A stretch of 64,000 bases of DNA from a virus. Taxonomy: Duplodnaviria; Caudoviricetes. This document shows, in pieces, positions 962-64,000 of this stretch. Numbering within the stretch: the first letter of the stretch is position 1; the number at the start of each line of letters is the position of its first letter. A model generated the notes under the pieces. That model saw nothing but the letters and a program-made list of their open reading frames with translations. It ran no database searches and was not told the DNA's origin. The position numbers were made by a program, and so were the translations under genes. The stretch spans positions 32,001 through 96,000 of the IMG/VR virus record IMGVR_UViG_3300033463_006083; one strand, given 5' to 3'.

Positions 962-1315
962 ATGAAAAAGATTATTGAACATGGTTTTATGAATTATATG
1001 GAAACTACCTGTCCATACTGCGGCTGCAAGTTTTCATTTGAATGGGAAGATGTAATTAGTCCAACTTGAGGTCCAACTTGGAGATATGATAATACAAATA
1101 TTACAGTTAGTGGTTGTTGTATTACTACTGGAACCGCACAAAGTTATGAAATTTTCTGTCCTGAGTGTAAAAGAAAATTTCCTATCTTAAATTGGACTTT
1201 TAACTATCCTAAAAATACTTGTCCTTTTACATATAGTGGAGAATTAAAAAATACATCTGTAACAAAATATTCCTCAGATTGTACCTGCCACAAATGTTCA
1301 GACAAACATGATTAA
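962..1315 (+). CDS. Cys-rich zinc-ribbon-like protein, 117 aa (code 4)
   Basis: AGGAG RBS and ATG at 962. Motifs CPYCGC, CPEC and CTCHKC. One in-frame TGA at 1067-1069 lies in the tandem repeat cca-act-TGA-ggt / cca-act-TGG. Ends in TAA. Confidence 0.75.
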
Positions 1316-1339
1316 TTATATTAAGCAAGAAATAATATT
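1300..1339 (+). promoter_or_regulatory. Possible copy of the phage-specific promoter motif upstream of nrdD
   Basis: AGACAAAC-N26-AATATT, one mismatch from the GGNCWAAN-N26-(C/A)ATAT motif seen eight times on the minus strand. Confidence 0.4.
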
Positions 1340-61000: not shown

Positions 61001-64000
61001 TTTTTTAGATAATTTATTATATTGAGCAATTAAACCATTAACATAATCTTCTTGAGCTTGGAATGCTTCCATATAATTAGCAATAGTTCCATCTGCATTA
61101 AATTGAACTCCTTGTTTTGCTAATTTTTTAGCAAGCTCACTTTGTTCACCTTGTGCAATTTTTAATTTTTCATTGTAATTTTGAATTTGAGTATTTAATA
61201 ATTGCCATTGTTTAGTTAAATTTTCTATTAATTTTGCACCAACTAATTTTTGTTGTTGTGATTGCACTTTTTTAAGTTGGTTATCAATTTTAGAAATTTG
61301 AGTATTAACTTTGTGATATCTATCTGCTTCATCATCAATTTTATCCATTGTTTTAGGTTTAGATGATGAACCGCCACCACCACCAGATTTTCCTTTGTTA
61401 CTTTTAGGCGGACTATATTTAAAACTATTTTTATTCGCTCCTTTGAATCTTGTTTTTCCAGCATTAATAACAGGAATTTGAATAGTTCCATTTGTTTTTG
61501 TAGTAGCATAATTAGTAATAGTTTTCTTTTCTAAGGTTTTAGGATCTGTATATGTTAAAGTCGCCGTTTCTCCATTAGCTTCAGAAATTTCAGCTTCTAC
61601 TTTATCTATATTAGGATCATATCCAATGCCAGATAATATTTCATTCGCTTGAGCTTCTGTAATTTCTAAATTATTTAATAAAGTTTGCAATTGATCAGCA
61701 ACATCAACATCTAGTTCTGTTCCAATTTGAATATTTTCAAGATCTAAATTATCAATATAATTCATTAATTCTTGAACTTCACTTGGCATTTTTTCTCTTC
61801 AATCAGTATTAATATTTAAAATATAATCTTTAGCTAATTCTTTTTGTAAATTATCTAATACAGACATATCCCCATTAGCTAATTTTCTAATATCTTCTAA
61901 ATGTTGTTTAACAAAATCTTCTGAAACATCTTTTCCTAAAACATCTTTTACTTTAGTAATACTTTCTCCAACTTTTTCCATTTCCGTTGGATCTAAAGCT
62001 TTACCTGATTTTCATTTATTCAAAACATCTTTATTATCATTTAAAGATGTGCTTAATGCATCTAATTTTTTTGCAAATTTATAATGATTTTCTGCAGCTT
62101 TAATTGCAAATTCATCATTTTCTTTTAAAGCTTTACTATTTTTAATTAATTCTTTAGTATATTCAACAAAACCATTTTTATCAGTTTCTAACGAATCTGC
62201 AGTAGCTTCTGCTTTTGATCTGAAATTTTGAGCATTATACTTATCAATATCAGCTTGAGATTGTGTTTGCATTTTAGAAATGCCTTTAACATAATCATCA
62301 ACAGAAGATAATCCACTTTTTTTATCTGTGTCAGTATTTACTCCTATTTTCTTTAAAGATTCTTTTAAATCTGCACCAGACTCAACAATTTCTTTAACTT
62401 TATTAATTTCTTCAGGAGTTAAAGCATCTATATCTCTTGATAAAATTTTATCAGCTAATCCTTTATCAATACCATACTCTTCACTTAATGCAGTTTTTGC
62501 TTCCTCCGCCTGCTTCCTGATTTTTTCATCATTAGGAACTAAATTATATGATTTTTTAAGATATTCATTATAATTCTTTCTTGTAGCTTTTGACGTATCT
62601 GCATCATATATATCTGCTTCATCAAAAGTACCACCATTTTGAATATACGCGGCAATAACAGCAGCCATTTCTTGACGGGTCATTCTTTGTCCGTCATATT
62701 CATACTGTCTATTTGCATCTCCATAATCAACATTAGTAAATTTAGCTTGACTAAAAGCTTGACCCATAGCTTTCTGATACATTCTCATGAAAACTTGAGC
62801 ATCTTCATCAAACTCTTCACTACTTGTATAAACACCTCATGATTCTGCATCTAAAAGATTTTGAACAATATCATCACTTTTATTATTACCCTTTCATAAA
62901 GCAGATGCATATCCACCACTTTGTTGTACTTTATCAGGTACCATTAAAGTATTAATATTTGCAACTTTAGTATCAATATTATTTAAAGATTTTACTATTT
63001 CTTGAAAAGTTTTTTGTTCATTTTCTAAACTATCAACAATAGGATTAACAACCTCTGAGGCATTAACACCAGTATACCCATGCTCAGCAGCATATGTGTT
63101 TGCAATTTCCTTTACAATGTCATTATATCCTTGTTTAGTTAAACCTACTTGACCTAATCTACGTTGATCTGCTTCAGACAAATTATAAGTTGGACCATTC
63201 GCCGCATAGCTAGTTTTTACATCAACTTCTTCTAAAGCTCTTTGTTTATCTTTTTCATATATTTTAGATTGATTTACAAGTTTAGCATAATTAACAATAT
63301 TTAATGATTGTTCTTTATTACTTAAATATTCATTAAATTTACCTTCATCTAACGATAAACGTCCATTAGTATTTTTAACAATACCTTCAATATTTAATAA
63401 ATCTGGATATTTTTCTATAATTGCTTCAACTTGACTATTGACTTCTTTTAATTTTTCTTTTCATTCTTCAGAAGTATCAATACATCCATCTAATGCATGT
63501 TCTGCATCTTGTAAAGATTCTCAAGATTTTTTTAAATCTTGAATAGAATTTGATAATTCCTCAGATTGTTTAGTTAAGTTTTCTTGAGCCTCTTGAAAGC
63601 TTTTATATTCTCTTTCATCTGCAGTGATAGCATTATAAATTAAATATGCTGCTCCTGCAATTGCGGCTGCAATAGCTACATAAGGTAAAATTGCAAGCAT
63701 TGCTTTCGCAGCCGATGCCGCTAATGCTCCAAATGCTTTAGATTGTAGTGCTGTACTAATAGTCATTCCATTCAATGCTGCAGAAGCACTTGGAATTGTT
63801 GTCATTAATTTAACAAAACCAGAACCAATAGTTTTTGCACCCATTGCTAAAGATGTAAATCCCATAGATAAAGCAGAAATAACTTTTAAGAATTTTTCTC
63901 CTTTACTAATAGTATCATCTTTTAATATATCATCTATATTACTCAACGCTTGTAATCCTGCTGCAACCTGACCAATTCCTGATGCAACATTAAGAAAACC
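58019..64000 (-). CDS. Tape measure protein, more than 1990 aa (5'-partial, code 4)
   Basis: Nine track fragments share one frame. Long coiled coils, an Ala/Gly-rich hydrophobic segment, and C-terminal GYDTGGYTGS[W]...AMLHQKELVLN. Confidence 0.88.
58586..58651. repeat. (ATT/AAT)n microsatellite encoding poly-Asn in the tape measure protein
   Basis: 20 perfect ATT units plus two more Asn codons. Confidence 0.95.

Follow-up and report, generated by a model that had tools for sequence, protein, structure and literature searches.

The DNA analyzed here, a stretch of 64,000 nucleotides that we call the window, corresponds to positions 4682–68681 (minus strand) of a 119,593-bp virus record; coordinates marked "genome" refer to that record. 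Our subject is the codon TGA, which this phage uses as a sense codon that is apparently read as Trp, and a phage-encoded tRNA with the anticodon UCA, designated tRNA(UCA), that lies outside the window. The record has a GC content of 29.6%, lacks a terminal repeat, and has a CheckV completeness of 80%. It most likely belongs to a large siphovirus-like phage of the ruminant gut with a complete genome of about 135–150 kb, and its tail genes are present in bovine and goat gut metagenomes (20 runs from 10 studies, two of the runs possibly being the source). The structural genes encode a 2791-amino-acid tape measure protein, tail and fibre proteins, and four DUF285/BspA-like leucine-rich repeat (LRR) proteins. 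Also encoded are glycosyltransferases, an M23 peptidase, an endolysin with a CW_7 repeat, a RuvC-like resolvase, the anaerobic ribonucleotide reductase NrdD/NrdG, thymidine kinase, dUTPase, peptide deformylase, Pol III alpha, DnaB-like and superfamily 1 (SF1) helicases, a RecJ-like protein, an NAD-ligase, gyrase A/B, RNase H, an RNA ligase, and a sigma factor. Among the larger open reading frames (ORFs) scanned, none encodes a terminase, portal, or capsid protein, which fits an incomplete record.

Plus- and minus-strand gene blocks converge in the window between positions 14240 and 14353, where the sign of the GC skew flips. On the plus strand, a Cys-rich small ORF of 117 amino acids (962..1315) holds one in-frame TGA at 1067–1069, inside the tandem SPT[TGA]-GPT-W(TGG); the repeat of cca-act-TGA and cca-act-TGG at 1061–1081 reads exactly as an earlier first-pass annotation of this DNA had described it. 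The TGA-poor nucleotide-metabolism block (1390..11322), delineated by Pfam and the gene map, follows on the same strand. Pfam assigns NrdD (1390–3633), an NrdG-like activase (3626–4123), a methyltransferase (4231–4791), a metallophosphatase with one TGA (4860–5792), thymidine kinase (6066–6647), peptide deformylase (7490–7969), dUTPase with one TGA (9668–10198), and a sugar epimerase/dehydratase (10402–11322), and the gene map adds an ORF with one TGA at 6647–7438. Three plus-strand genes then adjoin the convergence point. A family 2 glycosyltransferase (GT2; 11294..12511), placed by the gene map, Pfam, and structure homologues, contains 11 in-frame TGAs, and a family 4 glycosyltransferase (GT4; 12502..13650; gene map and Pfam) contains six. 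The RuvC-like Holliday junction resolvase (13695..14240), recognized by PHROG, carries TGA at the site KSSG[W]AIF.

The minus strand is occupied from 14353 by structural and lysis genes. Two tail/baseplate proteins of 878 and 699 amino acids (14353..19091) contain 11 and seven TGAs, respectively; both entered the orthologue comparison described below. The four DUF285/BspA-like LRR proteins (19725..32499) contain 25, 51, 44, and 21 TGAs next to one, six, three, and three TGGs; TGA thus spells 141 of their 154 Trp codons, the most extreme codon bias of the record. The same interval, 19725–32499, is the lowest-GC part of the window (22–25% GC). A further GT2 gene with three TGAs lies between the LRR genes (25916–27061). 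Fibre-like proteins are encoded at 35906–39406 (eight TGAs), 39533–43009 (Flg_new repeats, 29 TGAs), 43023–44816 (four TGAs), and 45981–48857 (three TGAs). These are followed by the endolysin (50849..51703; two TGAs), a PHROG endolysin with a CW_7 repeat (Pfam, 2.3e-22) of the Cpl-7 type (PDB 5i8l), and by the M23 metallo-endopeptidase (51813..52631), which has no TGA. A 1471-amino-acid tail protein (53499..57914) has 11 TGAs, and the C-terminal part of the tape measure protein (PhageMin_Tail; 58019..64000), which runs off the end of the window, has 15 TGAs inside it.

TGA is a sense codon in this phage. Counting ORFs of at least 150 amino acids, translation table 11 gives 33 in the window and table 4 gives 41; the latter include ORFs of 1373, 1471, and at least 1993 amino acids with up to 51 in-frame TGAs. 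Across the whole record, ORFs of at least 200 amino acids cover 39.5% of the sequence under code 11, 68.4% when TGA is read as sense, and 42.6% when TAG is read as sense. Pfam domains cross the TGAs uninterrupted, as exemplified by the DUF285 match with E = 1e-154 in the 1373-amino-acid ORF that holds 51 TGAs. The recoding of TGA to Trp proposed in the first-pass annotation is thus borne out by ORF cover and Pfam domains, and further by the orthologues and RNase H structures described below. The accompanying observation, that TAA or TAG terminates each gene, does apply to all 128 called genes, but it is a consequence of building the ORF map under code 4. The small gain from reading TAG as sense, together with the miscalled tRNA(CUA) discussed below, led us to reject a second recoding (code 15), and TAG remains a stop in this phage.

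Comparison with orthologues provides the strongest evidence for the identity of the inserted residue and indicates that it is Trp. Four sister records (G001, G002, G003, and G005) were found through the tRNA(UCA) pattern followed by a genome search, and their proteins are 30–79% identical to those of this phage; back-translated tail-protein peptides retrieved no close relatives from viral contigs. In the 878-amino-acid tail protein (14353–16989), the G002 orthologue has TGG at eight of the 11 TGA sites, the rest being S, F, and a gap. A genome-wide tally left out the four DUF285 proteins and the Flg_new protein, because out-of-register LRR alignments had given many L, I, and S, and skipped high-scoring segment pairs below 30% identity. 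Of 63 TGA sites compared with G002, 28 face W, 2 TGA, 6 Y, 6 F, 5 N, and 2 G; of 77 compared with G005, 27 face W, 18 TGA, and none G. In RNase H, each of the three TGA sites falls on a W of one or more solved RNase HI structures, and two of them form the conserved W..W pair.

Individual codons cited in the first-pass annotation fared unevenly. The two LRR C-caps read as claimed, GCT GGA TGG ACA ACA AAT TAA in the gene at 19725–21746 and GCA GGA TGA AAA ACA AAT TAA in the gene at 27141–30215, and the resolvase does read KSSG[TGA]AIF at the RuvC site given as SSG[W]A; its G005 orthologue (72% identity) has TGA at the same position. The GT2 motif E[TGA]IVVDD had been taken for a conserved Trp site, which did not hold, since homologues of solved structure have V or I there. 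For the DUF285 repeats, a TGA had been assigned to the Trp position of every copy. A loose regular expression for 'VSN[W]N' gave 117 matches, 67 of which have TGA and eight TGG; the remaining 42 have other residues. Within the phage's own sequence, this too points to Trp.

TGA use differs sharply between gene blocks. In the late block, on the plus strand of the record (genome 426–54329; window 14353–64000 and beyond), 29 genes contain 252 TGAs and 68 TGGs, so that 79% of late-gene Trp codons are spelled TGA. The three GT2, GT4, and RuvC genes adjoining this block (window 11294–14240) contain 18 TGAs and four TGGs. In the nucleotide-metabolism and replication block on the minus strand of the record (genome 57360–91507, including window 1–11322), the ratio is inverted, with 13 TGAs and 101 TGGs in 38 genes. 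Recoding had been presented as a feature of the whole interval 962–64000; it is instead uneven and concentrated from window position 11294 onward. The sister phages are graded in the same respect: TGA and TGG total 95 and 444 in G002, 166 and 347 in G005, and 319 and 264 in this record, and the same tRNA(UCA) is found in all three.

The search for a tRNA-Trp(UCA) elsewhere in the genome, suggested in the first-pass annotation, identified one. A cluster at genome 95–105 kb, outside the window, contains 24 tRNA genes and a transfer-messenger RNA (tmRNA). The tRNA(UCA) gene occupies genome 98731–98826, 125 nucleotides upstream of tRNA-Trp(CCA). The encoded tRNA carries A1-U72 and G73, and tRNA-Trp is the nearest match to its core (identity 0.73–0.80). 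Neither of the other suggested factors, a phage tryptophanyl-tRNA synthetase (TrpRS) and a release factor, turned up: the class Ic synthetase domain (PF00579) and the RF-1 domain (PF00472) are absent from all five records examined (this one and the four sisters), one of which, G002, is a complete record with terminal repeats. Host TrpRS must therefore charge tRNA(UCA). The gene that ARAGORN calls 'tRNA-Pyl(CUA)' at genome 100468–100544 in fact encodes tRNA-Arg(UCU), its anticodon having been placed one base out of register; the anticodon loop, CUUCUAA, reads UCU, and the tRNA is 88% identical to the tRNA-Arg(UCU) of G002.

The tRNA region contains other noncoding RNAs. The tmRNA is full-length (genome 102505–102922; 90 bits) and is kept in G002 and G005; it may handle ribosomes stalled at UGA during a code switch. 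A match to OLE RNA (Rfam) lies beside tRNA-Gly in three related phages and scores well above the gathering threshold, at 100, 109, and 119 bits; the loci are genome 95334–95605 in this record, L036:5822-6158 in G002, and L045:3811-4016 in G005. OLE RNA is known from Bacillota chromosomes, which makes a phage-borne OLE-like RNA unexpected. The sister phage G005 encodes a full-length ROOL RNA (L044:15820-16456; 152 bits). Also outside the window are an RNA ligase (L009:638-1843), a metallophosphatase (L007:3236-3832), and an AAA_33 kinase-like protein (L007:4087-4608). Together they look like a tRNA-repair kit, which would be consistent with a phage heavily reliant on tRNAs of its own.

These observations suggest a model, which we consider highly probable, in which the phage imposes TGA as Trp on a walled, standard-code host by means of its own tRNA(UCA), with the recoding favoring late genes. 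The replication and nucleotide-metabolism genes, nearly free of TGA, would be translatable by host ribosomes on arrival. The Trp-type tRNA(UCA) from the 24-tRNA cluster would be charged by host TrpRS and, as it accumulates, UGA would come to be read as Trp. The tail, fibre, LRR, glycosyltransferase, and lysis genes would then become translatable, with release factor 2 (RF2) outcompeted or disabled by some means. Simple arithmetic shows that an ORF with 51 UGAs needs about 98–99% read-through per codon if its product is to reach a useful yield, which is why the model calls for such a loss of RF2 activity. This ORF is an extreme case, and it implies that UGA must have all but ceased to act as a stop late in infection. 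Expression timing, the code and identity of the host, charging by host TrpRS, and the suppression of RF2 are parts of the model that we infer. Because TrpRS and release-factor genes are missing both from this lineage and from its complete relative, the model sharpens the question of how a tRNA alone can turn a stop codon into efficient sense.

As judged from phage gene content, related phages, and associated bacterial contigs, the host is most likely a walled member of the Bacillota (Firmicutes) that uses the standard code. The M23 peptidase and the CW_7 endolysin point to a peptidoglycan wall. Of the two hydrolases named in the first-pass annotation, the M23 enzyme was confirmed outright; in the supposed NlpC/P60-CW_7 protein the CW_7 part was recovered by Pfam and the NlpC/P60 part was not, a separate NlpC/P60 protein being encoded outside the window. 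NrdD and NrdG point to an anaerobic host. Among named phages, the nearest are ones with Enterococcus or Bacillus hosts and the gut phage phAss-1. Two metagenome-assembled genomes (MAGs), titled Bacilli bacterium and Ca. Scybalousia, include a contig with a tRNA of the same unusual five-arm family as tRNA(UCA). Both have prfB, the RF2 gene, above the curated cut-off and an rpoC without internal stops, and therefore use code 11. Another genome, G008, was considered as a code-4 member of the Clostridia, since no prfB exceeded the cut-off and code-4 ORF cover was higher at locus L025. It was rejected: at 48–57% GC, overlapping frames make most of its code-4 ORFs spurious, rpoC was not found, and no tRNA is present at the pattern match.

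Of the alternatives, the one that survives best is that the host itself uses code 4, being an unrecognized walled lineage with TGA as Trp that the phage merely matches. The first-pass annotation had offered this next to the phage-imposed code, on the premise that code 4 is confined among free-living bacteria to wall-less Mollicutes. That premise is dated: the text of the gTranslate preprint lists as table-4 users two Eggerthellaceae genera, which are walled, and a Fastidiosibacteraceae strain. In addition, TGA is never needed as a stop among the 128 genes of the code-4 map, as that map dictates by construction, and TGA does serve as Trp in some replication-side genes. If the phage were matched to a code-4 host, however, it would have no reason to keep TGA/TGG at 13/101 in replication genes and 252/68 in late genes. 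Nor would such a host be expected to yield sister phages that range from 95/444 to 319/264, and the phage would not need a tRNA(UCA) of its own. RF2 and a stop-free rpoC are present in both MAGs that include this tRNA family. Eggerthellaceae are high-GC bacteria, as opposed to the 29.6% GC of the phage. We therefore judge a code-4 host improbable, and favor a code imposed by the phage on a walled code-11 host, on the strength of its own tRNA(UCA), the TGA-poor replication genes, the graded sisters, and the two MAGs.

Several observations nevertheless weigh against a phage-imposed code. TGA occurs on the early side, with three in RNase H and one in the RecJ-like gene, and of the 38 genes in that block nine contain one or more; either the gate leaks or expression of those genes comes later. 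The record, about 80% complete, yielded no anti-RF2 factor, and none of the listed runs that hold the tail genes is an RNA run. The link to the MAGs is weak, resting on a binned tRNA contig, and locus L030 shares only two weak protein matches with the phage. Finally, tRNA(UCA) in this assembly has G3.U70. This pair is the main identity element of alanine tRNAs, so that mischarging is possible for this allele. Position 70 is mostly or wholly C in four other runs, and the G3.U70 of this record is a minority allele.

Two other readings of TGA carry far less weight. The codon could encode Gly, as in code 25, in a phage of walled Absconditabacteria or Gracilibacteria; phages with this code exist according to the text of the Borges preprint (10.1101/2021.08.26.457843), and their hosts are reported to use it. 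Gly stands opposite only two of the 63 TGA sites in G002 and none of the 77 in G005, as against Trp or TGA at 30 and 45 of them, respectively. The Trp-type features of tRNA(UCA), its A1-U72, G73, and core nearest tRNA-Trp, and the coincidence of RNase H TGAs with Trp sites likewise speak against Gly, which we regard as exceedingly improbable. An equally faint prospect is that the TGAs are true stops in a decaying or misassembled contig, or sites of selenocysteine insertion or occasional read-through: ARAGORN does label tRNA(UCA) 'SeC' owing to its long extra arm, but its acceptor and T arms are 7/5 where those of bacterial tRNA-Sec are 8/5, the 319 in-frame TGAs lie in frames uninterrupted by TAA or TAG over as many as 2791 codons at a genomic GC content of 30%, independent sister records have TGA or TGG at the same sites, and the stretch is present in runs from 10 studies.

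We turn to the structure of tRNA(UCA), which has five arms. The molecule is 96 nucleotides long and has a normal anticodon arm, ACGGU-CUUCAAA-ACCGU. At the position of the variable arm it has an extra hairpin, CGGGU-CUCCAAA-ACCCG, whose loop is the anticodon loop of tRNA-Trp. A search with a five-arm pattern returned 14 viral contigs and two MAG contigs; when the extra loop was left free in the pattern, all 11 matches had UCCAAA there. Across 17 distinct aligned sequences, 97.9% of the cells are paired and 18 of 26 base pairs show compensatory changes, a result that none of 500 shuffles matched. The extra arm considered by itself is 96.3% paired, with compensatory changes in three of its five pairs. 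In four other ruminant-gut runs, contigs accumulate on tRNA(UCA) to many times the depth of its flanks, which indicates that the tRNA is common to many phages in those runs.

It is tempting to speculate that the extra arm is a detachable identity handle, in which the UCCAAA loop displays C34-C35-A36 to host TrpRS and the true anticodon reads UGA. We hold this idea tentatively, at a probability somewhat short of even. Such a handle would let host TrpRS charge a tRNA whose real anticodon would otherwise be poorly accepted. A class Ic synthetase was seen in none of five records with the five-arm tRNA and in one of five whose tRNA(UCA) has the canonical four arms, and it is absent from two complete records of the latter kind, a contrast that speaks neither for nor against the handle. 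A similar arrangement appears in two TAG-recoded viral loci, L084 (11874–11968, minus strand) and L107 (9454–9544), each with a long-arm tRNA(CUA) whose extra loop is UUCUGA and contains the Gln anticodon CUG. These amber counterparts hint at a general design; they are a lead only, as the UUCUGA motif was specified in the amber pattern. The other 52 of the 54 amber-pattern matches were discarded as ordinary tRNA-Gln or unrelated sequences. Our literature search found no description of a five-arm suppressor tRNA.

TGA-recoded gut phages of standard-code Firmicutes have already been described, and this phage is a further case; the high novelty claimed for it in the first-pass annotation is not upheld. 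The Agate phages, as set out in the text of their preprint, have genomes from about 127 kb upward, read TGA as Trp, occur in cattle, pig, and tortoise guts, and have predicted Firmicutes hosts (10.1101/2021.08.26.457843). Their structural and lysis genes are recoded and their replication genes keep the standard code; close relatives lie on both sides of the code change, and a near-standard-code relative already has the suppressor tRNA (10.1101/2021.08.26.457843). Judged against that account, the present phage agrees in its large genome and ruminant-gut source, in TGA as Trp, in late-gene recoding, in a predicted Firmicutes host, and in its graded sisters, with G002 as the low-TGA relative that has the suppressor. 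The strand convergence and GC-skew flip at 14240–14353 also resemble the replichore layout that the account reports for Agate. The five-arm shape of the suppressor tRNA of this lineage is not described in the passages of the Borges preprint consulted. With TGA as the majority Trp codon of its late genes, the phage adds one more well-documented case of recoding in the ruminant gut, and table 11 gives seriously wrong annotations for both the record and its relatives.

Phages with a 'code change module' likewise convert TGA to Trp in standard-code cells through a phage tRNA(UCA), and are described in the published accounts as having their own TrpRS and, in the case of Jade, also RF1. The lineage studied here has neither a TrpRS nor a release factor in any of five records and must rely on host TrpRS. 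For such a tRNA-only code change, the five-arm tRNA(UCA) is a concrete candidate answer, and it may be useful for engineering UGA suppression. The gut siphovirus phAss-1, which has predicted Clostridia/Bacillota hosts according to the text of its report (PMC10607447), is large, as is this phage, and its tail protein is 32.8% identical over 69%. Shared with phAss-1 and the proposed Phassvirus group, as that report portrays them, are many tRNAs, a very long tape measure protein, and stop recoding in late genes; there, however, TAG is converted to Gln with tRNA(CUA) (PMC10607447), whereas here TGA is converted to Trp and TAG is kept as a stop.

Cellular systems offer a second comparison. In Mycoplasmatales (table 4), UGA is also read as Trp by a tRNA-Trp(UCA), but the reassignment is genome-wide, RF2 has been lost, and the cells are wall-less; in this phage it is biased toward gene modules, phage-borne, and accompanied by peptidoglycan hydrolases. 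The tRNA itself resembles class II tRNAs and tRNA-Sec in having a long helical arm between the anticodon and T arms. It differs from them in that this arm is a 5-bp stem with a 7-nucleotide loop, NUCCAAA, that copies Trp, in its 7/5 arms, and in its Trp-type identity.

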